From Xylanibacter ruminicola 23 (GTDB lineage: Bacteria > Bacteroidota > Bacteroidia > Bacteroidales > Bacteroidaceae), in assembly GCF_000025925.1 (NCBI RefSeq), contig NC_014033.1, forward strand, positions 3,120,001-3,152,000: 32,000 nt of DNA, in the 5' to 3' direction. Made by a program: the position numbers and the translations under genes. Under the pieces are notes generated by a model that saw only the letters and a list, made by a program, of their open reading frames with translations, was not told the origin of the DNA and made no database searches. Shown piece after piece: positions 2,470 to 28,870 of this stretch (within the stretch, counting starts at the first letter, position 1; every line of letters begins with the position of its first letter).

Positions 2470-2500
2470 TGAGTTATGGCTTAGGTTATGCTAACCCCCA

Positions 2501-2574
2501 TTCGTCACAAATCGATGCTGTTTATCCCAGAAATTTGTTGCTATCTGAAACAATGTGTACTTTTGCAGCGTCAA
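2501..2574 (+). promoter_or_regulatory. Promoter-operator module A: direct repeats, -33 TTTG, -7 TACTTTTG, then GCGTCAA
   Basis: TTCGTCACAAA lies at 2501-2511 and TTTATCCCAGA at 2521-2531, a 20-bp period. TTTG is at 2534-2537, followed by a 20-nt spacer and TACTTTTG at 2558-2565. GCGTCAA is at 2568-2574 and the ATG at 2591. Confidence 0.75.
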
Positions 2575-2590
2575 TAATCAACATAAGAAT

Positions 2591-3328
2591 ATGAATAAAG
2601 AACAAAGATTTTGTCAGAGTTGCGGAATGCCACTCACAGAGGAAGTCCTCGGTACTAATGCCGATGGCAGTAAGAACGAAGATTACTGTATGTATTGCTA
2701 CAAGGATGGAAAATTCTTGCAGGACTGCACGATGGAAGAGATGATTGAACATTGTGCACAGTTTGTTGGCGCAGTAAACGAGGGATTGGAGAAACCCATT
2801 ACAAAAGAGGAATATATCGGTATGATGAAATCGTACTTTCCCCAGTTGAAGCGCTGGCGCCAAACGTTGGATGTTAGTAACGATGAAGTGATGAATGTTA
2901 ACCCTGCTTTGGCAGGCGTTAAAGAACTTATTGCACAGATGGCCGACAAACAGCCCATCGCTTACATCTCATCGGTCGATCAGGACGGATTCCCTTGGAC
3001 CAAGGCCATGTTGAAGCCACGCAAGCGTGAGGGTATCAAAACCTTCTACTTTACAACCAACACATTCTCAATACGTGTGGCTCAATACAAGGCCAATCCC
3101 AAGGCAAGCATCTATTTCTGCGATGCTAAAGGATTTAAGGGCATGATGCTCAGAGGTACAATGGAGGTGCTGACGGATGCAGCCTCGAAGGAGATGATCT
3201 GGCGCGATGGCGACACAGAGTACTATCCAGGCGGCGTCACCGATCCTAATTACTGCGTGTTGAAGTTCACTGCTACCGATGGCCGTTTCTACAGCGATTT
3301 CTATCCACGTAGTTTCGTAATTGAGTAA
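2591..3328 (+). CDS. N-terminal zinc-ribbon domain fused to a pyridoxamine 5'-phosphate oxidase-like (general stress protein 26-type) FMN-binding split-barrel domain
   Basis: MNKEQRFCQSCGMPL...DYCMYCYKDGKF...LKRWRQ is paralogous to the C-terminus of the upstream gene. It is followed by IAYISSVDQDGFPWTKAM..., typical of the PNPOx family. The ATG at 2591 lies downstream of the -7 box at 2558-2565, so the GTG at 2555 in the track is rejected. Confidence 0.8.
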   Translation: MNKEQRFCQSCGMPLTEEVLGTNADGSKNEDYCMYCYKDGKFLQDCTMEEMIEHCAQFVGAVNEGLEKPITKEEYIGMMKSYFPQLKRWRQTLDVSNDEVMNVNPALAGVKELIAQMADKQPIAYISSVDQDGFPWTKAMLKPRKREGIKTFYFTTNTFSIRVAQYKANPKASIYFCDAKGFKGMMLRGTMEVLTDAASKEMIWRDGDTEYYPGGVTDPNYCVLKFTATDGRFYSDFYPRSFVIE

Positions 3329-3345
3329 ATGATGAACAACAAAGC

Positions 3346-3966
3346 ATGAAGGTTGTTGAATTAAATATTGACTCTACGCCGGCGCTGATTATTGGCGAGA
3401 AGAGCGAGAAAGTGTTCCTGTTTGTGCATGGGTTGCATGGACGCAAGGAAGAGGCATTGGCCTTTGCAGAGGTGGCTGTGCCCAAAGGTTATCAAGTTCT
3501 GGGTATCGACCTGCCTGTAGAGCGCAAGCCTTGGGAGGTACTGCCTTTGCTGAATGAGATACGTGATTATCTATATGATAATTGGCAATCGGTATCTGTT
3601 CGTGCTAACAGTATAGGTTCGTGGTTTACGTTGTTGGCTTTCCAGAGCAAGAAAGTGGAGCAGGCATTGCTTGTTTCTCCAATTCTCGACATGAAGCGGT
3701 TTATTGAACTGATGCCACAGCGCGAGGACGACTATTACGAGTGGGTTGTTAATAATCCAATTACAAGTTGGGTTGCGCCCACATACATTCTTCGCCCAGA
3801 AGTGGATCTGATTGTCAACGAGGAAGTAGGTTACGACTTCATCAGTCAGCATCAGTGTCAGGTCACCATCATGCCTGATGGAGAACATTGGTTTCATACG
3901 CCAGAACAGCTTGCTTTCCTGAAAGCATGGGAAGAGAAAACGATAGAAAAACATTGTATAAAATGA
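3346..3966 (+). CDS. Alpha/beta hydrolase
   Basis: It has an HGLHG oxyanion region, an ANSIG nucleophile elbow (AxSxG), and a C-terminal GEHWFH containing the catalytic His. Its stop overlaps the next start as ATGA. Confidence 0.75.
   Translation: MKVVELNIDSTPALIIGEKSEKVFLFVHGLHGRKEEALAFAEVAVPKGYQVLGIDLPVERKPWEVLPLLNEIRDYLYDNWQSVSVRANSIGSWFTLLAFQSKKVEQALLVSPILDMKRFIELMPQREDDYYEWVVNNPITSWVAPTYILRPEVDLIVNEEVGYDFISQHQCQVTIMPDGEHWFHTPEQLAFLKAWEEKTIEKHCIK
3922..3945 (+). repeat. 24-bp perfect direct repeat, copy 1 (AAAGCATGGGAAGAGAAAACGATA)
   Basis: It is identical to 5337-5360. In frame it encodes KAWEEKTI near the C-terminus of the alpha/beta hydrolase. Confidence 0.95.
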
Positions 3967-4982
3967 TGAAAGAAATATTGTACATATTGCTGGATAATTA
4001 TGCCGAGCACGAGATCGGTTTTATGCCAGGTGCAGTGAGCACCAATGCCACAGGCTTTCGTAAGGAACCAAAGTATATTAACAAGATGGTAGCCCCAACG
4101 ATGGAGCCTGTAAAATCGATTGGTGGTATGCGAACCCTGCCCGACTATTCGTTCGAAACCATGCCTGAAGATTATGCTGCCTTGGTACTGATAGGCGGTT
4201 TTGGTTGGATGAATTCCGAAGCTGAGCGTGTATTACCCATTGTTAAGGATGCGCTGAGCAAAGGTGTTGTTGTGGGAGCTATCTGTAATGCCGCTTCGTG
4301 GATGGCCAAACAGGGATTGCTGAACAACATCAAGCATACAGGAAATGGTATCAACCAACTGAAATTGTGGGGTGGCAACAACTATACCAACGAGACCGGT
4401 TATGTGAACGAGCAGGCTGTAACAGATGGTCGTATCGTTACAGCCAATGGTTCGGGATATCTTGAGTTTACACGCGAGTTGCTGAAACTGCTTGAGAACG
4501 ATACGCCAGAAATGATTAATGGCTGGTACACGTTTATGAGCGACGGACTGGTAAAGTTGTACTCGCCACGTCCTCGATTCAAATTCAACACCGTTGGCCT
4601 TTTTACCAGTAATAATAAGGCTACTGTTGATTTCTATACAAAAGCTTTTGGTTTTACCACCGACTGGGATGGCATTCAGCCAAACGTGGAGATGATGTTG
4701 GGCGACATGCGTATCATTCTCTATCCTCGTAGTGATTTCGAACAGATGGTGTCTTACAAATTTCAATATCCTATGGGGCTCAACGGCACTGTAGAATTAG
4801 CATTCGATGTTCCTTCGTATGCCGATGTTGACAAGGAATATCAGCATGCACTCCGCCATGGAGCAATATCTGTTCTTCCTCCCACCACAGAGCCATGGGG
4901 CCAGCGCACATGCTATGTGGCCGACCCTGATGGAAACCTGATAGAGATTGGCTCGTTTACAATCGAGCAGAATAATCATTGA
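3963..4982 (+). CDS. DJ-1/PfpI (class I glutamine amidotransferase-like) domain fused to a VOC (glyoxalase/bleomycin-resistance) domain
   Basis: The N-terminal half contains the nucleophile-elbow Cys in VVVGAICNAASW. The C-terminal ~125 aa (FTSNNKATVDFYTKAFGF...DPDGNLIEI) is a typical VOC fold signature. The ATG at 3963 forms an ATGA overlap with the upstream stop, and the longer track ORF from 3888 would overlap the hydrolase. Confidence 0.75.
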   Translation: MMKEILYILLDNYAEHEIGFMPGAVSTNATGFRKEPKYINKMVAPTMEPVKSIGGMRTLPDYSFETMPEDYAALVLIGGFGWMNSEAERVLPIVKDALSKGVVVGAICNAASWMAKQGLLNNIKHTGNGINQLKLWGGNNYTNETGYVNEQAVTDGRIVTANGSGYLEFTRELLKLLENDTPEMINGWYTFMSDGLVKLYSPRPRFKFNTVGLFTSNNKATVDFYTKAFGFTTDWDGIQPNVEMMLGDMRIILYPRSDFEQMVSYKFQYPMGLNGTVELAFDVPSYADVDKEYQHALRHGAISVLPPTTEPWGQRTCYVADPDGNLIEIGSFTIEQNNH

Positions 4983-4991
4983 TTAGAGATA

Positions 4992-5375
4992 ATGAAGTCT
5001 ATCCGTATTTTTGCGATGGCGCTTGCAACAATGGGTGTCATCCATATCGTAGCTACTTTTACTCCATTAATTAATGGTGGTTTGGAGTTGCTAAGTCCGG
5101 CCAAGCAGCAGGCTATAATTTATATGAGTCTAATGTGTGGCATGCTATTAATAGTGTGCGGCTTGCTTATAGCAATGCTACATAAGAAAGTAAAAGAACA
5201 TCCGTTTCTACGTAGGCCATATATGTTGATATATGGTGCACTGAGCGTTGATGGCATAGCGGCTGTCGCTTTCATGCCTCATAACCCGTTTGCGTGGCTG
5301 GTGTTTATACTTATTTGCTGTTTGGCTATTTCCCAAAAAGCATGGGAAGAGAAAACGATAATATCAAATGAATAG
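4992..5375 (+). CDS. Small integral membrane protein (about 4 TM helices), function unknown
   Basis: A 127-aa ORF with four hydrophobic stretches. Its last 12 codons include the 24-bp repeat that also ends the hydrolase gene, and it overlaps the next gene start by 8 nt. Confidence 0.55.
   Translation: MKSIRIFAMALATMGVIHIVATFTPLINGGLELLSPAKQQAIIYMSLMCGMLLIVCGLLIAMLHKKVKEHPFLRRPYMLIYGALSVDGIAAVAFMPHNPFAWLVFILICCLAISQKAWEEKTIISNE
5337..5360 (+). repeat. 24-bp perfect direct repeat, copy 2
   Basis: It is identical to 3922-3945. In frame it encodes KAWEEKTI near the C-terminus of the small membrane protein. Confidence 0.95.
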
Positions 5376-5922
5376 AATTACAATGGAAACAAATCGTATC
5401 ATATTGCGCCCTTGGCGCGAATCGGATGCGGAGACACTGTATAAATGGGCTTCTGATCCTGATGTGGGGCCTCGTGCAGGATGGCCACCTCATCAGAATG
5501 TGGAGGAGAGTCTGGAGATTATTCGCACTGTATTTAATGACGTGCTGCACACATGGGCTATCGTTCTAAAAGAGACTGACGAGCCTATTGGCGCTATGGG
5601 GTACGGCCCGTCGTGCGAGTGCGATCTGCCGGCCCGCGAGGGTGAACCGCTCATTGGTTATTGGGTGGCCAAGCCCTATTGGAATAAGGGCATCTGCACA
5701 GAGGCACTGCGCCTGATGTTAGACCACATCCGAGAATCGACGGACATCCAATCGCTCATTAGCGGCCACTTCGTAGATAATCCAGCTTCTGGTAGAGTAA
5801 TGGAAAAGTGTGGTTTCGTTCCCACAGGCGAGATTTGCATAGACGAAAACCAGTATCAAGGTGAGAACAGGCCTATCAGAGTGTTGAGATTAGAATTGTC
5901 ATCATTGCATGGTGCTACATAG
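5368..5922 (+). CDS. GNAT N-acetyltransferase (RimJ/RimL-like, Acetyltransf_3 type)
   Basis: TNRIILRPWRESDAETLYKWASDP is the characteristic N-terminus of RimJ/RimL-like GNATs, with NKGICTEAL as motif A. An alternative start at 5383 is possible. Confidence 0.85.
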   Translation: MNRITMETNRIILRPWRESDAETLYKWASDPDVGPRAGWPPHQNVEESLEIIRTVFNDVLHTWAIVLKETDEPIGAMGYGPSCECDLPAREGEPLIGYWVAKPYWNKGICTEALRLMLDHIRESTDIQSLISGHFVDNPASGRVMEKCGFVPTGEICIDENQYQGENRPIRVLRLELSSLHGAT

Positions 5923-5957
5923 ATGCGCGCTCCTGTAACTCACGATTAGCGCTCCCT

Positions 5958-6031
5958 TTCGTCACAAATAACTGCGTTTTATCCCAGATATTTGGCTGTC
6001 TCAGCAATTATGCGTTCCTTTGCAGCGTCAA
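5958..6031 (+). promoter_or_regulatory. Promoter-operator module B, with the same architecture as A
   Basis: TTCGTCACAAA lies at 5958-5968 and TTTATCCCAGA at 5978-5988. TTTG is at 5991-5994, followed by a 20-nt spacer and TTCCTTTG at 6015-6022. The GCAGCGTCAA block ends at 6031 and the ATG is at 6055. Confidence 0.75.
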
Positions 6032-6054
6032 ATCATATTAAATAAAATATAATA

Positions 6055-6756
6055 ATGAAAGTATTAGTCATTAACGCATCAGCAAATAAGGAGCGCAGCA
6101 CAACGCTTAAACTTACCAAAACATTTCTGGAAGGTCTCGAAGTAGAGGCTTCGGAAGTGGAGTTTGTAACAACCATTGGTCTTAATATCAATCCCTGCAG
6201 AGCTTGCTATGCCTGTTGGTTTAAGACATCAGGCGAGTGTGTGCAGAAGGACGATGCAACAGAAGTGATGGAGAAAATTCGCCAAGCCGACCTGGTTATC
6301 TGGTCGATACCTCTCTATGCCTATGGCGTACCCTCTCATTGTAAGGCACTGATGGATAGAACAGTATCGTTTAACTCGCCTTTGATGTATATCGATTCTG
6401 ATGGCATTGCCCATCACTATGGTTATGAGGAAGGCACCAAGAAAACGGTACTGATTTCGACAGCAGGACTGCCTAACATGAGGGGAAACTTCGATGGACT
6501 TCTGTTTGCCATGCGCCACATGTATGGCAAGAATATCAGTTACATCTGTTGTGCTGAGGGTTCGCTCTTCATGAATCCCGATACCGAGATTTTTACTGCT
6601 CCTTACTTAAAAAAAGTAAAGCAAGCCGGTGCAGAGTACAAGGAAACAGAAAGAATCTCTGACGAGACACAGGCGTATCTTGATACACCGATGCTCCCTG
6701 CAGATGCATTCGTCAAGACCGTGAATGGCATTTTTGAAGGAATGCTGGCACGCTAA
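6055..6756 (+). CDS. Iron-sulfur flavoprotein (Isf)-like NAD(P)H-dependent FMN reductase / flavodoxin-fold protein (second paralog)
   Basis: It begins MKVLVINASANKERSTT and carries the Cys motif CRACYACWFKTSGEC (CX2CX2CX7C). It is the first gene after promoter module B. Confidence 0.8.
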   Translation: MKVLVINASANKERSTTLKLTKTFLEGLEVEASEVEFVTTIGLNINPCRACYACWFKTSGECVQKDDATEVMEKIRQADLVIWSIPLYAYGVPSHCKALMDRTVSFNSPLMYIDSDGIAHHYGYEEGTKKTVLISTAGLPNMRGNFDGLLFAMRHMYGKNISYICCAEGSLFMNPDTEIFTAPYLKKVKQAGAEYKETERISDETQAYLDTPMLPADAFVKTVNGIFEGMLAR

Positions 6757-6778
6757 CTAGTTTTGTAATTGAATAATT

Positions 6779-7498
6779 ATGAAGAGGATGATTAAATCAA
6801 GAATTGATACAATAGAAATACAAAGCCGAACTTTAGGTAAGACTATGGTTGTTACGATTTATATGCCAACCAATTTTTGCGAGGGATTACCTGTTCTCTA
6901 TTTTATGCACGGGCGTAGTGGCGACGAGTCTATTATTCATGCTTTGTATATACAAACCGTTGCAGACAGAATGATTGCAGATGGCAGGATGAAACCAATG
7001 CTAATTGTCTGCCCAAGGATGGAAGATGCGCTAGGATTAGGTGCTTTCGAAGATTATTTCTTTAACGAGGTGATGCCAATTGTAGAGAAACAATACAAAA
7101 CGAGTGTACGTTGCATTGGAGGGGTTTCGGCTGGAGGCTTCATTGCCTTGAACTACGCTTTCCGCCATCCTTATTTATTTGAGCGAGTAGGCGGTCACAT
7201 GCCTGCCATCGAAGACGTATTGGATGATGACGACCTGCATTATTTCGGAACCAGTGAGCAATGGAAAGCAAATAATCCGCTTTTTCTGGTTCAGAAGTGT
7301 ACTTTGCCTTCAACTATGGAGATTTATCTTGACGCAGGAAGTGAGGACGAAGGTGGATTTTATCGAGGATGTGCGCAACTGGCAGAAAGATTGGCAGTCC
7401 GTGGCGTTCTGGTTCAGAATCATTTAAACGAAGGACATCATACCATTGATTATATCAAAGCTCATTTGGAGGAATATCTTATGTTTTATGCAAAATAA
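6779..7498 (+). CDS. Esterase-family alpha/beta hydrolase (putative esterase / esterase D-like)
   Basis: It has HGRSGDE near the N-terminus, a GGVSAGGF GxSxG nucleophile elbow, and a C-terminal NEGHHT His. Confidence 0.75.
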   Translation: MKRMIKSRIDTIEIQSRTLGKTMVVTIYMPTNFCEGLPVLYFMHGRSGDESIIHALYIQTVADRMIADGRMKPMLIVCPRMEDALGLGAFEDYFFNEVMPIVEKQYKTSVRCIGGVSAGGFIALNYAFRHPYLFERVGGHMPAIEDVLDDDDLHYFGTSEQWKANNPLFLVQKCTLPSTMEIYLDAGSEDEGGFYRGCAQLAERLAVRGVLVQNHLNEGHHTIDYIKAHLEEYLMFYAK

Positions 7499-7525
7499 AT
7501 AGACTATGAGTGATCTAATAGAAAT

Positions 7526-7987
7526 ATGATGAAAGACAGTATCAGTAAGGCCAACATGGACGATTTGCAGGAGATTCTCAATCTGCAATACCTTGCTTAT
7601 CAGAGTGAGGCTGCCTTATTTGGCAACAAAGATATACCACCCTTAAAGCAAACACTAGATGAGGTGATTGAGGAATACCACAAAGGTATTATCCTGAAGA
7701 TGGTGGATACAGATAATCTCATTATAGGTTCTATTCGTGCATGGGAGATGAAAGAAACCGTCTTTGTAGGAAAACTGATGGTTCATCCCGATTACAGACA
7801 TCGTGGCTATGGCACGAAACTTCTGAGTGAGATAGAGAAGTATTGCCCTCAAAAGAGATATGAGCTGTTTACGAGCACCCGTAGCATTGACAACATCCGA
7901 CTGTATCAGAAGATGGGCTATCAAGAGTTTGACCGTAGGCGCGTTGATGATCAATTAGAATTTGTATATATGGAGAAAATTGTATGA
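7526..7987 (+). CDS. GNAT N-acetyltransferase
   Basis: Motif A is present as HPDYRHRGYGTKLL, and the 153-aa size is typical of a single-domain GNAT. Confidence 0.8.
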   Translation: MMKDSISKANMDDLQEILNLQYLAYQSEAALFGNKDIPPLKQTLDEVIEEYHKGIILKMVDTDNLIIGSIRAWEMKETVFVGKLMVHPDYRHRGYGTKLLSEIEKYCPQKRYELFTSTRSIDNIRLYQKMGYQEFDRRRVDDQLEFVYMEKIV

Positions 7988-8154
7988 TGAGAACATTAGA
8001 CAATTAGATACGCCAGAGATGGGCACTTACGCTCGCTGGCAAAAAGGCATAACCAACCACATTCCCGTTTACCATTGCCACTATCCAGGGATATCATTGA
8101 GGATATCAGTAATCACGCCCTCACCGTAAATATAGGGTTCGTTTTTTAACGTAA

Positions 8155-8228
8155 CTCATCACAAATATGTGTAATTTATCCCTAATGTTTGTTTGTCTCG
8201 GCAACAATTCGTAATTTTGTAGCGTCAA
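8155..8228 (+). promoter_or_regulatory. Promoter-operator module C, with the same architecture but a degenerate first repeat
   Basis: CTCATCACAAA lies at 8155-8165 and TTTATCCCTAA at 8175-8185. TTTG is at 8188-8191, followed by a 20-nt spacer and TAATTTTG at 8212-8219. The GTAGCGTCAA block ends at 8228 and the ATG is at 8248. Confidence 0.7.
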
Positions 8229-8247
8229 AACATTAAAAAGAAAGAAA

Positions 8248-8784
8248 ATGCAAGATTTCATGACACCCCCGAAGCACGTAAACTGTCGTGCCAAAAAATC
8301 ATCATTAGATATGACTCTTCGACCATTTCTGTCTGATGATGCAGCAACAATTCTGAGTTGGTGTAAGGATAAGCATGCCTTCCGACTTTGGAGTGCCGAC
8401 AGGTATAAGGATTTTCCTGCCAAGCCTGAGGAGATGATGGCGCAATACAATGGCGACAACATATATCCACTGACGGCAGTAGTGGGTGATACGATTATCG
8501 GCCATATTCTGTTACGACGTCCTTCTGAGGATAAAAGCATCATCCGTTTCGGCTTTGTGATTGTAGATAATACGAAGCGAGGCTATGGATATGGTAAGCA
8601 GTTGTTACGACAGGCTATCGAATATGCAAGGGAGAAACTCGGCGCTAAGCAGATTACGCTCGGTGTGTTTTGCGAGAATATTTCTGCCGTAGAATGCTAC
8701 AAATCGGTAGGCTTCCGCATCAAAGGCGACGGTTCCTATTTGATCGACGGTGATAAATGGAAAGAATTTGAAATGGAATTATAA
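8248..8784 (+). CDS. GNAT N-acetyltransferase
   Basis: Motif A is present as NTKRGYGYGKQLL. It is the first gene after promoter module C. Confidence 0.8.
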   Translation: MQDFMTPPKHVNCRAKKSSLDMTLRPFLSDDAATILSWCKDKHAFRLWSADRYKDFPAKPEEMMAQYNGDNIYPLTAVVGDTIIGHILLRRPSEDKSIIRFGFVIVDNTKRGYGYGKQLLRQAIEYAREKLGAKQITLGVFCENISAVECYKSVGFRIKGDGSYLIDGDKWKEFEMEL

Positions 8785-8795
8785 AAGTAAAGACT

Positions 8796-9917
8796 ATGTA
8801 TCAATCTCGTCATCTGGCAAACACTCGAATCGATGTGGCTGATGCTCTGAGAGGCATCGCTGTAGCCGGCATTATCCTGTATCACTCGGTGGAACACTTT
8901 AATATCTTTACGCAGGAGCCGATAACCCATACGCTAGCGACTGACCAGATGGTGGCCGATGTACTGGCTTGGCTGCTGTCTGGCAAGATGTACGGTATCT
9001 TCGCCATGCTCTTCGGCTTGAGTTTCTTCATCATGAACGATAATCAGCAGCAGAAAGGCAATAATTTCTCTGGGCGCTTTGCTTGGCGCATGTGCCTGTT
9101 GTTCCTCTTCGGCATAGTCAATGTGGCTTTCTACGATGGCGACATCCTGATGCTTTATGCCTGTTATGGTCTGCTGCTCATCCCAATCAGTTATCTGCCG
9201 TCGAAGTGGGTGTGGTGTATAATTGCCTTATTAGCCATCCAGCCTGTAGAACTATTCTGCCTGCTGACTGGCACCACCATCGACCACAGCACCTTGTGGG
9301 AAGTGTACAGCAAGATCAACAGTGCCCATGAGCATGGTACATTCTGGGAGAATACCCTTACCAACCTGCGATATGGATTTGAGGTGAATTTCCGCTTCAA
9401 TATCTTCAGCGGGCGACTGACCCAGCTGCTGTGCCTGTTTATTTTAGGTATGCAGTTGGGCCGCCAGCGTATGTTTTATAACGAAGGGCGTAATTTGCAG
9501 ATATGGCATCAACTGTTATGGCGATCGGCGTTGGTGGTAGTTGTGCTGAGTATTGTGGATTTTAGCGAGATAGCCTCGTGGCTTAACCCGATCTACAATC
9601 TGATGATATTGATGATGATTGTGTCGGCCATCGTTTCGGCATGGTATGCTTCTGAGGGCGTGCGCAAGGTGTTGCATCATTTGTGTATTTTCGGACGTAT
9701 GAGTCTTACCAACTATCTGCTCCAGTCCATCATCGGCTGTGCTATCTTCTGCGGCTATGGCCTGGCTTGCTATCGCCATTTAGGTGTTACCTATGCTGTG
9801 ATGGTTGGATGTGGCATGGTTGTTTGTCAGTATCTCTTTGCCAGATATTGGTTCTCCAATCATCCTCGCGGTCCGTTAGAGGGGCTTTGGAGAAAACTGA
9901 CATGGATGAGGTTGTGA
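8796..9917 (+). CDS. DUF418 (YeiB-like) polytopic membrane protein
   Basis: The N-terminus RIDVADALRGIAVAGIILYH and the C-terminus SLTNYLLQSI...HPRGPLEGLWRKLTW match the DUF418/YeiB pattern, and there are many TM segments. Confidence 0.75.
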   Translation: MYQSRHLANTRIDVADALRGIAVAGIILYHSVEHFNIFTQEPITHTLATDQMVADVLAWLLSGKMYGIFAMLFGLSFFIMNDNQQQKGNNFSGRFAWRMCLLFLFGIVNVAFYDGDILMLYACYGLLLIPISYLPSKWVWCIIALLAIQPVELFCLLTGTTIDHSTLWEVYSKINSAHEHGTFWENTLTNLRYGFEVNFRFNIFSGRLTQLLCLFILGMQLGRQRMFYNEGRNLQIWHQLLWRSALVVVVLSIVDFSEIASWLNPIYNLMILMMIVSAIVSAWYASEGVRKVLHHLCIFGRMSLTNYLLQSIIGCAIFCGYGLACYRHLGVTYAVMVGCGMVVCQYLFARYWFSNHPRGPLEGLWRKLTWMRL

Positions 9918-10075
9918 CTGCTGACGGATGTTTTACCAACCGTTCCGACCTTTCACTGCAGTATATGATCGACCATGGGTTACGTGGCCGTTCCGACATT
10001 CCCAATCCCTTCCATCCGGGAAGCACTTACGATAATTCCCAGGCTTCTCGCATCGTGCCTGATGCTGTCAAGACA

Positions 10076-10975
10076 TTAGAGAGGCTGGGCTATCTGTATC
10101 GCAGCTCTAACTTGTGCCATATTGCTGCGCGAAACGGGGAGTGATTCGTGACAATGCTTGATGAGCAGCTGGGTAGTGCCAGAATGTGAGATAATCTGCT
10201 CTACCTGACCTAGGTTGACCATGAAAGCGCGGTGGCAACGGACTATCATTGGATAGGACTCAAGCGTTTCCTCCATGAGTTTCATCGTGGCGCGAAGCAT
10301 GTCGGTATGTACCTGATTGTTGCGCAGATGACTGACCCTGACGTAATTGCCCACAGCCTCTATATATAATAGATCGGAAATCTGTAACGTCACCGATTCG
10401 TTAGTGGTACCAGTGAGTGTGAGCTCTTGCGGTTGAGAATTCTCAACGGAGTGTTCTGCTTCGTTCGGCAATGATTGTTCGGGCTCCTGCATCTTCTTCA
10501 ATTCCTCGTTCAGCAGTCGCGTATCTTCCAGTTCTATCGCTAAATATTTGCTACGGTATTTGAAGCGCCAATAGAGTCCGATGGCGAACGAGCAGAAGGC
10601 AATGATGGCAAGGGTTTCAAGGAAATTGACAACTGAAAGCTGGTTGCCTGCATCATGTTCGTTCAGCACGAAATGGCGATAGAGGCAGATGCTCAATGCC
10701 ACGAGCGGTGTATTGATAAGTTGAAATCTGAGGTTGCGGCGGATGATGTATTCAGCGCCTTTCTTGAATGACCTCGGCATCTTGACAACATATTTCAGGA
10801 TGATGTCCGTCATCATGCAGATGAGGAAGCCAATCACTCCCAACACTATCAGATGTGCATATCCCTGCCATTGCCAATCCGACATCCAGAAAGGCTTGAA
10901 CACTGCCAGTGCCACTACTGTAAACGTAGTGCTGATAATTCTCGTTGTTATCGTTTCTTTGCGTCCTTGTTTCAT
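10076..10975 (-). CDS. Membrane-anchored LytTR-domain DNA-binding protein with no receiver domain
   Basis: The N-terminal ~165 aa contain about 4 TM helices, followed by a coiled-coil linker (LEDTRLLNEELKKMQ). The C-terminal ~100 aa form a LytTR domain (ISDLLYIEAVGNYVRVSH...RCHRAFMVNLGQV). I prefer the ATG at 10975 because a TATCTTTG -7 box (10984-10991, minus strand) lies inside the longer GTG-initiated track ORF. Confidence 0.8.
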   Translation of the reverse strand: MKQGRKETITTRIISTTFTVVALAVFKPFWMSDWQWQGYAHLIVLGVIGFLICMMTDIILKYVVKMPRSFKKGAEYIIRRNLRFQLINTPLVALSICLYRHFVLNEHDAGNQLSVVNFLETLAIIAFCSFAIGLYWRFKYRSKYLAIELEDTRLLNEELKKMQEPEQSLPNEAEHSVENSQPQELTLTGTTNESVTLQISDLLYIEAVGNYVRVSHLRNNQVHTDMLRATMKLMEETLESYPMIVRCHRAFMVNLGQVEQIISHSGTTQLLIKHCHESLPVSRSNMAQVRAAIQIAQPL

Positions 10976-10983
10976 ACAAGCCG

Positions 10984-10991
10984 CAAAGATA
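10984..10991 (-). promoter_or_regulatory. Bacteroidota -7 box TATCTTTG for the LytTR gene
   Basis: The minus strand reads TATCTTTGcggcttgtATG, placing the box 8 nt upstream of the ATG at 10975. Confidence 0.5.
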
Positions 10992-11068
10992 CAAAGAAGC
11001 GAGTAAAAAAACAAACAAATTCTCACATTTTTAAAAATTGTCGTACTCTCTGTTGCATTTCCATGCTG

Positions 11069-11153
11069 TTATCCCTGTTATTCGTCACAAAAAGTTGCAA
11101 TTCGTCCCAAAATAGGGGAGGATTGCAACTTTTTAATAACTGTGTGCCGTCAA
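11069..11153 (+). promoter_or_regulatory. Module D, a divergent variant lying between the LytTR gene and the outer-membrane receptor gene
   Basis: TTATCCCTG lies at 11069-11077, TTCGTCACAAA at 11081-11091 and TTCGTCCCAAA at 11101-11111, the last two with a 20-bp period. A -7-like TAACTGTG is at 11137-11144 and CCGTCAA at 11147-11153. The -33 position is GGGG rather than TTTG. The ATG is at 11182. Confidence 0.65.
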
Positions 11154-11181: not shown

Positions 11182-13551
11182 ATGAAACAGATTAGTTTGA
11201 AAATGGTAGCTTTGATAGCTGCAATGATGATGTGTTTATCAGCCGAGGCTATGACCGAGGATGTAGGCGGACGAGTAATTGACGCGCATGGTGAACCTTT
11301 GCCATTTGTGAGTGTGGCACTGCTTACAGCCGACTCTACTTATATACAAGGTGCAACGAGCGATGTGGATGGTTTCTTCCAGATTAAAGTCTCTGAGGTC
11401 TGTTGCATTCTACGATTCTCGTATATCGGATATCGTACCAAGTATGTTGACGTAAAGGGAATGGAAATCGGTACCATCCAGATGGAGGAAGATCAGGCGA
11501 TGCTCAGTGAGATAGTGGTGAAGGGCCAAATGCCTAAAACCAAACTGACAGGCAACTCGATGATAACCACCATTCAGGGTACTGTCTTGGGCAAGTCGGG
11601 TACTGCTCAGGAAATGCTGGCCAAGGTACCAGGTATGACGCTGAAAGGTGAAGACTTGGAGGTGCTGGGAAAGGGTACACCTATCTTTTATATTAATGGA
11701 AGAAAGATGCAGGATAAGGATGAACTGAAACGACTGCGTTCAGAAGAGATACAGAGCGTAGAGGTGATTACTAATCCTGGTGCGCAGTACGATGCCACCA
11801 TTTCGGCTGTAGTACGTATCAAGACTGTTCGCCGGGAGGGAGCTGGTTTGGGTTTCGACCTGATGGCTGCCAACAACCAGAACCTGACGTTCGGCTTCAG
11901 CGATCCCAGTAGCACGCTAAACCTGCGTTATCGTCACAACAATCTGGACCTGTTTGGTATGGTTAACTATTGGAAATGGGATAGTCCTAACGATCTGCGT
12001 ATTACGCAATCTACCTTCCTTAAGACTGATGAAGGCATTAGGAATATTCTTCAAGATAGCTACATTCGCAATGACTGGCAGGGGCAGGGCTTGAATTATA
12101 ATTTCGGATTCAACTTGCAGATTAACGACAAGCACTCGCTGGGTGCCAGAGTGGAACGTCACAACCAGTTTAAAACGCATAATGATATGTGGGTGAATAC
12201 AGAGAACAATCTTACTGGCCACGACCTCTCGCATCAGGATGATCATACCCATTATCCATATAACTGGCAGAGCAATGCCTATTATAACGGTCTGGTGGGC
12301 AAACTGAACATCGACTTGAATGTAGATTTTGCAACAGCTAAGGAAACTACCGACAACCAGATAGATGTGTATTTGCCTGAAGCCCAAACCATGCAGCAGA
12401 ACTCGCATACATGGTCACGCCTCTGGGCTGCTAAACTGGTGTTGAGCTATCCTGTGTGGAAAGGACAGTTGCAGGCGGGAACGGAGATGAGTTTCGTGAA
12501 GCGACAGAGCAGTTCGGCTATCACAAATTACCCTCTCCCTTCTACTGATACGGATGTAAAAGAAAACAATGTGGCTGCTTTTGTGGCTTACAATGCCAAC
12601 CTGGATAAATTTGGTACCGTAAGCGCCGGACTGCGTTATGAGCATGTGGGTTTTGACTATATGGACAATCTGGATGCCAATAATAATATGACACGCTATC
12701 AGGATGAGTTCTTCCCCAATATCACCTGGGCAAAGCAGTTTGGTGCTATCCAGACTTCGCTGAGCTATACTATGAAAACCGTTCGCCCGAACTATAGTGC
12801 ACTGAGCGACCATATTTATTATCTGAATTCGTTTACCCTGCAACAGGGCGACTCGAAACTGAAGAATGCTACGATGCAGGAGGTGAGCATCAATGCCAGA
12901 TGGAAGTGGATCAACCTGTTTGCTGCCTACGAGCGTCGCGACAACACCATCACTCAGGTACCAATGGCTTATAACAACGAAGGTATCATGCTACTGAAGC
13001 AGGCCAATCTGCCTGACCCCGTTCGCAATTTGGCCATCTTCCTGTCGGCCAATCCCACATGGGGCGTATATAGCCCAAGCTGGACTATCGGCGGGCAGAA
13101 GTTCTGGAACACGATGACGTTCGACGATCCTCGTAGTGATACAGGTAAGACGGATGTGACCTTCACTAAGCCTATCTTCTTCTTCGATCTGAATAACACT
13201 TTCCGCTTCAAGTATAGTTGGCAGTTGGAGGCCAATACCAACATCCAGACCAAAGGTGACGTGCTGAACTTCCGTATGCTCTCACCCTCGTATAATGTTT
13301 GTTTTGTGGTACAGAAGTGCTGGCTGAAAAACGATGCTTTGTGCTTGCGTGCCAGCATCAGCGATGTGTTCCAACGTAGCGTACAGGATGTAGCACAGGA
13401 CTGTGGTTTCTTCTACGGTGTGCAGAAAACACGAAGCCGTAGCCATCGTCTTGACATCTCTATCCGTTACACTTTCAATGCCCAGAAGAGTAAGTATAAG
13501 GGAACTGGCGCAGGTAAAGCCGAGCAGCAGCGCATGAGCAACAGCAACTGA
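11182..13551 (+). CDS. TonB-dependent-receptor-like outer membrane beta-barrel protein (CarboxypepD_reg-like N-domain, plug, then barrel); no SusD partner
   Basis: It has a signal peptide (MKQISLKMVALIAAMMMCLSAEA), a carboxypeptidase-regulatory-like domain (GRVIDAHGEPLPFVSVALL...DGFFQIKV), a plug, about 600 aa of beta-rich sequence, and a C-terminal aromatic-rich barrel end (IRYTF). Confidence 0.8.
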   Translation: MKQISLKMVALIAAMMMCLSAEAMTEDVGGRVIDAHGEPLPFVSVALLTADSTYIQGATSDVDGFFQIKVSEVCCILRFSYIGYRTKYVDVKGMEIGTIQMEEDQAMLSEIVVKGQMPKTKLTGNSMITTIQGTVLGKSGTAQEMLAKVPGMTLKGEDLEVLGKGTPIFYINGRKMQDKDELKRLRSEEIQSVEVITNPGAQYDATISAVVRIKTVRREGAGLGFDLMAANNQNLTFGFSDPSSTLNLRYRHNNLDLFGMVNYWKWDSPNDLRITQSTFLKTDEGIRNILQDSYIRNDWQGQGLNYNFGFNLQINDKHSLGARVERHNQFKTHNDMWVNTENNLTGHDLSHQDDHTHYPYNWQSNAYYNGLVGKLNIDLNVDFATAKETTDNQIDVYLPEAQTMQQNSHTWSRLWAAKLVLSYPVWKGQLQAGTEMSFVKRQSSSAITNYPLPSTDTDVKENNVAAFVAYNANLDKFGTVSAGLRYEHVGFDYMDNLDANNNMTRYQDEFFPNITWAKQFGAIQTSLSYTMKTVRPNYSALSDHIYYLNSFTLQQGDSKLKNATMQEVSINARWKWINLFAAYERRDNTITQVPMAYNNEGIMLLKQANLPDPVRNLAIFLSANPTWGVYSPSWTIGGQKFWNTMTFDDPRSDTGKTDVTFTKPIFFFDLNNTFRFKYSWQLEANTNIQTKGDVLNFRMLSPSYNVCFVVQKCWLKNDALCLRASISDVFQRSVQDVAQDCGFFYGVQKTRSRSHRLDISIRYTFNAQKSKYKGTGAGKAEQQRMSNSN

Positions 13552-28846: not shown

Positions 28847-28870
28847 GGCGGTTTCATCGCAGATTTTTCT

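Follow-up and report, generated by a model that had tools for sequence, protein, structure and literature searches.

Two-box direct-repeat sites in Xylanibacter ruminicola 23 and other Bacteroidota and their proposed recognition by a transmembrane LytTR regulator

Introduction

Which factor acts on the similar promoter regions that head several neighboring transcription units in the rumen bacterium Xylanibacter ruminicola 23? The units lie between 2.4 and 11.2 kb of a 32-kb stretch of its genome (contig NC_014033.1, positions 3,120,001 to 3,152,000), which was analyzed as a whole and is referred to here as the window; all coordinates are those of the window. The initial annotation of this DNA described a direct-repeat module shared by four intergenic gaps, and attributed it either to a shared trans-acting factor or to recent duplication of one promoter cassette. 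Comparison across genomes shows that the two boxes of this module are tightly linked to a gene encoding a predicted transmembrane protein with a C-terminal LytTR domain. This gene, located at 10076-10975 and divergent from the fourth copy, was absent from the initial annotation. It is proposed here, with a probability of about 0.75, that the four sites (A-D) are binding sites of the protein that it encodes.

Results

Four two-box sites are present in the window

The sequence TTCGTCACAAA is present exactly at 2501, 5958, and 11081, and a copy with one mismatch, TTCGTCCCAAA, at 11101; none of 100 shuffles reached four such matches. A repeat search detected three 88-nt copies (2502-2589, 5959-6046, and 8156-8243) with 68-73% identity, and the addition of 11080-11112 resulted in a four-member repeat family of 33 nt. 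The window was scanned with a position weight matrix (PWM) trained on 103 sites, all of them from genomes other than that of the window. It returned exactly four sites in the 32 kb, at 2501, 5958, 8155, and 11081 (A-D, with scores of 59.3, 47.7, 33.5, and 33.2, respectively), all on the plus strand, upstream of gene starts and on the coding strand. No further position in the window scored 8 on either strand, and the best score among 50 shuffles was 3.8. The sites occupy the four intergenic gaps of >100 bp between 2.4 and 11.2 kb, and a matrix built from other genomes recovers exactly the four copies that had been assigned to the long plus-strand gaps. A lone half-site-like sequence, TTCATCGCAGA, accompanied by promoter similarity near 28853, was considered as an extra site and rejected, as it had no second box and a PWM score below 8.

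Each site consists of two 11-bp boxes (Table 1); from start to start, they are 20 bp apart in every copy, as initially described. In copies A-C, the start of box 2 lies 13 nt before a TTTG (2534, 5991, and 8188), and box 2 ends 2 bp before this -33 element. The description of all copies as beginning with TTCGTCACAAA is exact for A, B, and D, whereas C carries two mismatches in box 1. Similarly, the register proposed for A-C (13 nt, TTTG, 20 nt, and TAnnTTTG) agrees with the spacings in all three and with the -7 boxes of A and C, but the -7 box of B reads TTnnTTTG. When compared with the Bacteroidota sigma-A promoter (-33 TTTG, -7 TAnnTTTG, spacer of ~19-21 nt), A and C therefore match in full and B deviates. 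The three copies also have in common the block (C/T)AGCGTCAA after the -7 box and a part of the -33/-7 spacer, GTCTC.GCAA..AT. Copy D was correctly described as keeping the boxes and the CGTCAA block within 1 nt of register (offset 67, as against 68 in A) without the -33 TTTG. The view of four modules of ~75 bp is appropriate for A-C (about 75-88 bp), while D shares the boxes and CGTCAA only. The -33 and -7 boxes were read by eye and tested statistically across genomes because the sigma-70 scan omits Bacteroidota promoters; promoter-like matches in that scan of the window were no commoner than in shuffles.

Table 1. Sites, promoters, and genes of the window that are discussed in the text (gene assignments by Pfam).
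Feature	Position	Strand	Description
Site A	2498..2531	+	CCA flank; box 1 TTCGTCACAAA 2501-2511; 9-nt spacer with TGC; box 2 TTTATCCCAGA 2521-2531
Promoter A	2534..2574	+	-33 TTTG 2534-2537; 20-nt spacer; -7 TACTTTTG 2558-2565; CAGCGTCAA 2566-2574; predicted start ~2569-2574
Unit A genes	2591-3328; 3346-3966	+	Zn_ribbon_2 + PNPOx; unknown open reading frame
Unit A genes, continued	ending 4982; 4992-5375; 5368-5922	+	DJ-1/PfpI + glyoxalase; unknown open reading frame; GNAT
Site B	5955..5988	+	Box 1 TTCGTCACAAA 5958-5968; box 2 TTTATCCCAGA 5978-5988
Promoter B	5991..6031	+	-33 TTTG 5991-5994; 20-nt spacer; -7 TTCCTTTG 6015-6022; then CAGCGTCAA; predicted start ~6026-6031
Unit B genes	6055-6756; 6779-7498; 7526-7987	+	Flavodoxin-like flavin mononucleotide (FMN) reductase; esterase; GNAT
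Site C	8152..8185	+	Box 1 CTCATCACAAA 8155-8165; box 2 TTTATCCCTAA 8175-8185
Promoter C	8188..8228	+	-33 TTTG 8188-8191; 20-nt spacer; -7 TAATTTTG 8212-8219; then TAGCGTCAA; predicted start ~8223-8228
Unit C genes	8248-8784; 8796-9917	+	GNAT; DUF418
Candidate regulator gene	10076..10975	-	299 aa; ~4 hydrophobic helices; charged linker; C-terminal LytTR domain ~190-295
Promoter of the LytTR gene	10984..11015	-	-33 TTTG 11015-11012; 20-nt spacer; -7 TATCTTTG 10991-10984; 8 nt before ATG at 10975
Site D	11081..11111	+	Box 1 TTCGTCACAAA 11081-11091; box 2 TTCGTCCCAAA 11101-11111
Long inverted repeat around box 2 of D	11086..11134	.	AAAAAGTTGCAAT ... ATTGCAACTTTTT; inner stem TCGTCCC/GGGGAGGA; then T run
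Predicted target gene of site D	11182..13551	+	CarboxypepD_reg + OMP_b-brl_3 beta-barrel, TonB-dependent-receptor-like

The motif and the LytTR gene are linked across genomes

Site D precedes the LytTR start codon by 106 bp and is oriented away from this gene, toward an outer-membrane protein gene. The association of motif and gene was evaluated from both sides. Starting from the protein, seven loci (L001-L007) were fetched via four LytTR orthologues (72-100% identity), and the two boxes, spaced by 20 bp, were present between the LytTR gene and its neighbor in all seven. Here, the motif faces the divergent neighbor: in some loci a LiaF-like_C gene with an OMP_b-brl_3 gene after it, in the others an outer-membrane protein gene directly. 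Starting from the motif, the pattern TYRTCACAAANNNNTGNNNWWYRTCCCA (36 bits) was compared with a genome collection of 1.2e12 positions and returned at least 120 stretches, while ~17 chance matches were expected by our arithmetic. The motif-selected stretches were taken as 120 8-kb tiles (L008-L127), and the counts from here on are those among the matches listed. Nearly all of them belonged to Prevotella, Prevotellaceae, Xylanibacter, Muribaculaceae, and other Bacteroidales. About seven appeared to be chance matches, with neither a promoter nor an adjacent LytTR-domain gene, and were mostly from outside Bacteroidota.

Analysis by tblastn revealed a LytTR orthologue of at least 50% identity in 41 of the 120 tiles; two further tiles harbored partial orthologues cut at the tile edge, two harbored paralogues with 24% identity, and another LytTR-domain gene was present in six more. 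For a gene that occurs about once per 3-4 Mb genome, <1% of the tiles would be expected to carry it, as against the ~45 of 120 found with an orthologue or paralogue (our arithmetic). Motifs located 33-316 bp upstream of a LytTR start were divergent from it in 38 of 38 cases, 35 of which were in motif-selected tiles. The orthologues beside these motifs ranged from 100% to 50% identity, and the neighbor in L010 and L017 was the 24%-identical paralogue. Distant taxa showed a co-directional order of transmembrane LytTR gene, motif, and outer-membrane protein-like gene, as seen in Flavobacterium (L063), Saccharicrinis (L106), and Rhodohalobacter (L080) as well as in L059, L100, and L109. The Rhodohalobacter protein has N-terminal transmembrane helices and a C-terminal LytTR domain like the window protein. 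No other DNA-binding gene was found to recur beside the motif in the annotated loci.

Features of the LytTR protein

The LytTR domain (PF04397) was detected by Pfam with E = 2e-15 at residues 211-310 of a 316-aa open reading frame (ORF) and was the sole Pfam domain of the protein, a receiver domain (Response_reg) giving no match. The hydropathy profile placed the hydrophobic helices at residues ~11-29, 38-60, 85-105, and 112-136, two of them being strong and two moderate. Structure matches were weak and consistent (PDB 3d6w, E = 1.8e-4; AgrA 3bs1, E = 0.017), and an NCBIfam match to BtsR covered the C-terminal part alone and was far under the cutoff. The nearest histidine kinase gene is ~8 kb away, among GH92 genes. 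A total of 4498 homologues were obtained, of which the best 120 were 72-100% identical and all contained PF04397; the protein is 99% identical in Xylanibacter (Prevotella) ruminicola Ga6B6 (L105). The N-terminal transmembrane module is lineage-restricted, with 99 cluster representatives at E <= 1e-3 among 1.84 billion proteins.

The PWM scan found no minus-strand two-box motif at the promoter of the LytTR gene; as boxes in its own orientation are lacking, classical autoregulation is not evident. The -7 box of this promoter ends so close to the ATG (10973-10991, minus strand) that transcription probably yields an mRNA with little or no leader.

Consensus and architecture of the sites

The family consensus is cCATTCGTCACAAA-nnnn-TGCAG-AATATCCCA(g/a)A, in which box 2 reads AATATCCCAgA, followed by (a/t)(a)TTTG. 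The core RTCMCArA is common to both boxes at an offset of 20 bp, i.e., two helical turns, which would place the boxes on the same face of the helix. Conservation was assessed in 126 pattern matches from other genomes, the 20-bp period being imposed by the pattern. Among the positions that the pattern leaves free, C/C/A/T at -2 to +1 (0.69-0.89), A at 31 (0.79), and the spacer residues C/A/G at 18-20 (0.90/0.76/0.70) were found to be conserved; the TG that precedes the last three is imposed. Of these matches, 62 have TTTG at an offset of 33 or 34 and 90 have TAnnTTTG at an offset of 57 or 58, and the first ORF typically began 85-120 nt after box 1. This conservation, together with the offsets, supports the initial proposal of a shared trans-acting factor in a class-II-activator-like position, with a register fixed to the -33 and -7 elements.

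Phased arrays of three to four boxes, at 20/20/21 bp, were found in L010 and L017 (cores at 4/24/44/65) and in L063 and L079 (cores at -16/4/24), and argue for a single repeated recognition unit. The four-box arrays (L010, 1790-1870; L017, 7742-7825) are located upstream of a -7 box and beside a transmembrane LytTR paralogue that is 24% identical to the window protein; the two loci may represent a sister system whose operator is related. With its flank, the box-1 consensus (CCATTCGTC) is equal at eight of nine positions to the experimentally defined core site of Pseudomonas aeruginosa AlgR, CCGTTCGTC (PMC4064291), while box 2 (AATATCCCAGA) showed no match to it.

Cassettes of the A-C type (TTTGGCAGTCTCGACAACAATTCGTAATTTTGCAG) with box 1 missing or with both boxes degenerate were also observed upstream of a flavodoxin/GNAT operon (L002, ~12060-12150, minus strand; L003, ~570-650, index 20300 of the reverse complement). 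The conserved spacer GTCTC.GCAA..AT of the A-C promoter subfamily could be a second operator or just the result of shared descent.

Inverted repeats at outer-membrane protein promoters

The inverted repeat around box 2 of site D (Table 1) gave an RNA fold of -27.9 kcal/mol (z = -5.5). The promoter of this site contains a weak -7-like TAACTGTG at 11137-11144, and CGTCAA is located at 11148-11153. Orthologues of this outer-membrane protein gene are preceded by a D-type module in at least 11 further genomes, and the arms carry compensatory changes (L015, L030, L031, L051, L052, L058, L068, L071, L093, L122, and L003 near 5315). In these, box 2 is placed in the loop of AAGTTGCAAT / ATTGCAACTT, and a T run follows; L052 is one member with compensatory arm changes. 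The repeat starts 23-41 nt past the stop of a co-directional gene in L052 and L031, and therefore looks like a terminator fused to a regulated promoter; the window repeat has no co-directional gene before it. A second class of outer-membrane protein promoters has a different repeat around box 2, AAACCCCTGCATAA tatcccac TTATGCAGGGGTTT, usually between a LiaF-like gene and the outer-membrane protein gene (L020, L025, L034, L044, L056, L087, L104, L112, and L001 near 3130), with a compensatory change in L087. A hairpin around box 2 as a feature of the whole family was considered and rejected, the mean longest repeat being 5.1 nt as compared to 4.65 nt in chimeric controls; judged against these controls, the inverted repeat is real only in the two outer-membrane protein promoter classes.

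Candidate regulon and the transcription units of the window

The first ORFs after 113 sites among the matches listed most commonly encoded outer-membrane proteins, with CarbopepD_reg_2 in 25 and OMP_b-brl_3 in 21, along with LiaF-like_C in 22, ATP-binding cassette (ABC) ATPases in 9 (MacB/LolD-like), Zn_ribbon_2 in 8, PNPOx in 6, Acyl_transf_3 in 4, GNAT in 4, and Flavodoxin_2 in 3. The second to fourth ORFs included MacB_PCD (13), FtsX (11), OMP_b-brl_3 (11), GNAT (11), CAT-like (6), HlyD (5), isochorismatase (5), BamE (3), and DUF418 (2). The LiaF-like partner, found in 34 loci, is a protein of 186 aa with two transmembrane helices and the LiaF-like_C domain. In Prevotellaceae and Muribaculaceae, the motif is found ahead of operons that combine a LiaF-like/Toastrack gene with an outer-membrane protein gene, of MacB-type ABC/HlyD efflux operons, and of Acyl_transf_3, CAT-like, and isochorismatase genes. 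Orthologous promoters headed by the motif were present elsewhere for units A, B, and C, e.g., in X. ruminicola D31d (L041). The recurrence of the same downstream gene families across genomes is in agreement with the regulon postulated earlier, and the gene set suggests a response to envelope, antimicrobial, or xenobiotic stress. Units A-D are predicted to be co-regulated.

The plus-strand genes in this part of the window code chiefly for enzymes that modify small molecules, and include an FMN reductase (969-1556) and a GNAT + Zn_ribbon_2 protein (1579-2469) 5' of site A. The terminator scan revealed no terminator-like site between units A-C or at the unit boundaries, so that the sites may act as promoters inside a longer transcript. 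The remainder of the window carries no motif and codes for glycoside hydrolases, a histidine kinase, QueC, an M16 peptidase, an extracytoplasmic function (ECF) sigma factor, and a major facilitator superfamily (MFS) transporter.

Some further features of unit A were observed. Site A sits between two copies of Zn_ribbon_2, one at the C-terminus of the GNAT protein (2209-2469) and one at the N-terminus of the PNPOx protein (2609-2860), with a 29-nt stretch that is 83% identical. An identical 24-nt sequence, AAAGCATGGGAAGAGAAAACGATA (encoding KAWEEKTI), at 3922-3945 and 5337-5360 ends the ORFs 3346-3966 and 4992-5375, which are of unknown function and otherwise unrelated; in both, the start codon of the downstream gene follows after ~10-25 nt, and the sequence may be a translational-coupling or ribosome-loading element. 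The DJ-1/PfpI + glyoxalase ORF was listed from a TTG (3888-4982), with an overlap of 79 nt with the preceding ORF (3888-3966); the AAAATGATGA junction at 3960-3969 suggests that its true start is an ATG near 3963-3966.

Discussion

The results presented here indicate that sites A-D are probably recognized by the transmembrane LytTR protein encoded beside site D, and the shared factor postulated in the initial annotation can now be named, with good confidence, as this putative regulator. From the sequence comparisons, we infer that it would bind the boxes, that it would activate rather than repress, and by which mechanism and to which signal it would respond. Two LytTR domains would bind head to tail and recruit RNA polymerase to the sigma-A promoter. 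In the promoter geometry of Bacteroides, transcription starts a few nucleotides past the -7 box, and the boxes would accordingly be centered near -66 and -46, which is an activator position. In the window, the four transcription units A-D would be switched on. The membrane domain of the regulator is proposed to set its activity, together with the divergent LiaF-like membrane protein where present.

Such an arrangement has parallels among the LytTR regulatory systems (LRS), which combine a soluble LytTR regulator with a membrane inhibitor and of which HdrM carries DUF2154 (Zou et al., 2018, PMC6193735). LytTR and LRS sites are typified by paired direct repeats that are about two helical turns apart and lie immediately before -35, and the LRS repeats diverge from the LytTR family consensus (PMC6193735). 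Like HdrRM and BrsRM of Streptococcus mutans, the system described here has a LytTR regulator without a receiver domain and a direct-repeat pair just upstream of the promoter. At many of the orthologous loci, the regulator gene is divergent from a gene for a putative membrane partner with DUF2154/LiaF-like_C, the domain found in HdrM. It differs in that the regulator is predicted to be membrane-embedded through ~4 transmembrane helices, and in that the genes are divergent with the motif aimed away from the regulator, instead of forming an autoregulated two-gene operon. The S. mutans operons are autoregulated through repeats of 9 bp that are separated by 12 bp and located 4-11 bp from -35 (PMC6193735), whereas 11-bp repeats with a 9-bp spacer, 2 bp from -33, are found here; moreover, the predicted regulon is dispersed over multiple operons, and the window copy has no partner gene.

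In silico, "LRS-like" operons have also been reported in Bacteroides thetaiotaomicron and B. ovatus (Btheta7330_RS19915/RS19920), with transmembrane LytTR regulators, a partner with NfeD and DUF2154, and the repeats TCCGGTATTCA-11 bp-ACCGGAAATCA placed 11 bp from the promoter with a period of 22 bp; this in-silico account proposes no regulon beyond the operon (PMC6193735). These share with our system the transmembrane LytTR regulator of Bacteroidia, a putative DUF2154 membrane partner, and 11-bp direct repeats 5' of a Bacteroides-type promoter. However, the gene for their partner, which also contains an NfeD-like domain, precedes the regulator gene within one operon, and the repeat sequences are unrelated. 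AgrA, ComE, PlnC, and BlpR have in common with it the LytTR domain and tandem direct repeats adjoining -35, but here the receiver and an adjacent cognate kinase are absent, the protein is membrane-anchored, and the period is 20 instead of 21 bp. In spite of the similarity of the core site to box 1, AlgR is a two-component response regulator, and its sites are single 9-mers at variable distance and in variable orientation. ToxR and CadC are likewise one-component regulators with a DNA-binding domain tethered to the cytoplasmic membrane, in some cases with an accessory membrane protein, but theirs is an N-terminal winged-helix domain with one transmembrane helix, whereas an N-terminal transmembrane bundle precedes a C-terminal LytTR domain here. 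In general terms, transmembrane transcription regulators are enriched in Bacteroidota (PMC10269533), and an association of Toastrack with LytTR has been described (PMC11237479). A literature search retrieved no paper with the box sequences in a relevant context, no description of the motif or regulon, and no LytTR regulon of Prevotella or Bacteroides apart from what PMC6193735 notes in silico. The system could be regarded as a LytTR regulator and direct-repeat operator in a divergent, multi-operon, membrane-tethered form, which would extend the LRS idea.

Several observations weigh against recognition of the sites by the LytTR protein. More than half of the motif matches listed have no LytTR gene in their 8-kb tile, so that the linkage is not universal, although this is what would be expected for members of a regulon. 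The consensus sequences of the two boxes agree at only about half of their 11 positions, the period of 20 bp is shorter than the 21-22 bp typical of characterized LytTR sites, and the spacer TGCAG (e.g., 2516-2520, 5973-5977, and 11096-11100) is not explained by a model of two half-sites. In contrast to the autoregulated LRS operons, the gene that the motif faces is not that of the LytTR protein, and the window has no gene for the LiaF-like partner in its 32 kb. The regulator appears to be membrane-embedded, yet would need to reach several dispersed promoters. An AlphaFold2 model of the LytTR protein, made with 40 close homologues, was unusable (mean pLDDT 45, pTM 0.25).

The dissimilarity of the boxes would allow one composite site bound by an unlinked factor, e.g., an activator of the AraC/XylS or MarA type, with the LytTR gene being merely a conserved neighbor. 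Regulons of the MarA/SoxS/Rob type have asymmetric sites abutting -35 and contain detoxification-type genes, and the ~31-bp asymmetric site abutting -33 and the gene set found here resemble them. It is unlikely that such a factor is responsible, since no other DNA-binding gene recurs at the annotated loci, the LytTR gene adjoins 38 motifs, without exception divergently, and is also found beside the motif in distant taxa with a different order, box 1 resembles the proven LytTR site of AlgR, and the phased arrays favor a repeated unit. The LytTR protein could also bind the boxes as a repressor or anti-activator of otherwise constitutive promoters: the -33 and -7 elements of A-C are near consensus and could fire unaided, and L002 contains a copy of this promoter cassette that lacks the boxes. 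The location of the site entirely upstream of -33, the usual position of an activator, and the D-type promoters without a -33 element, as often found in activator-dependent promoters, make repression an improbable mode. AgrA and ComE activate from tandem direct repeats adjoining -35. HdrR and the S. mutans LRS activate from such a position as well (PMC6193735).

Descent alone, through recent duplication within the cluster and with no dedicated regulator, would account for the spacer parts that A-C share (GTCTC.GCAA..AT and CAGCGTCAA, with 68-73% identity over 88 nt) and for the related cassettes with degenerate or missing boxes. This alternative has already been largely refuted and is very improbable, as the boxes are the best-conserved part in >100 genomes and in promoter classes with unrelated spacers, orthologous promoters such as those of X. 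ruminicola D31d retain them, and duplication does not explain the LytTR linkage. The boxes persist beside orthologues down to ~50% protein identity while the spacers diverge, and duplication is therefore not the main explanation. The strong hairpins at site D and in the one other outer-membrane protein promoter class bring to mind a transcribed RNA element, i.e., a leader or riboswitch, in place of a DNA operator. There is scarcely any likelihood of this: the boxes of A-C are upstream of the predicted -33 and -7 elements and so would not be transcribed from that promoter, only two promoter classes have the inverted repeat, and an RNA family was rejected as Rfam gave no match in the whole window at the gathering threshold.

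More tentatively, and with the odds somewhat against it in its full extent, the module may be the first operator and regulon to be defined for a LytTR one-component regulator embedded in the membrane, extending from Prevotellaceae and Muribaculaceae to Flavobacteriia and Balneolales. Envelope or xenobiotic stress would be sensed via the transmembrane bundle, with the Toastrack/LiaF-like partner where present, and an outer-membrane receptor, MacB-type efflux, and small-molecule-modifying enzymes would be activated. Where the operator lies in a terminator-like hairpin with box 2 in the loop, it might couple termination of the upstream operon to regulated re-initiation.

Prevotellaceae dominate the rumen and many gut communities, and to our knowledge almost no transcription-factor regulons have been defined in this family; transmembrane LytTR proteins are, as far as we know, common and uncharacterized. 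The present analysis yields a sequence motif, a named candidate regulator, and a predicted regulon with genes for outer-membrane proteins, MacB efflux, acetyltransferases, flavin reductases, and esterases, and would provide the first operator model for transmembrane LytTR proteins. If the regulon answers antimicrobials, bile, or plant toxins, it would have a bearing on drug and feed-additive tolerance in these bacteria.

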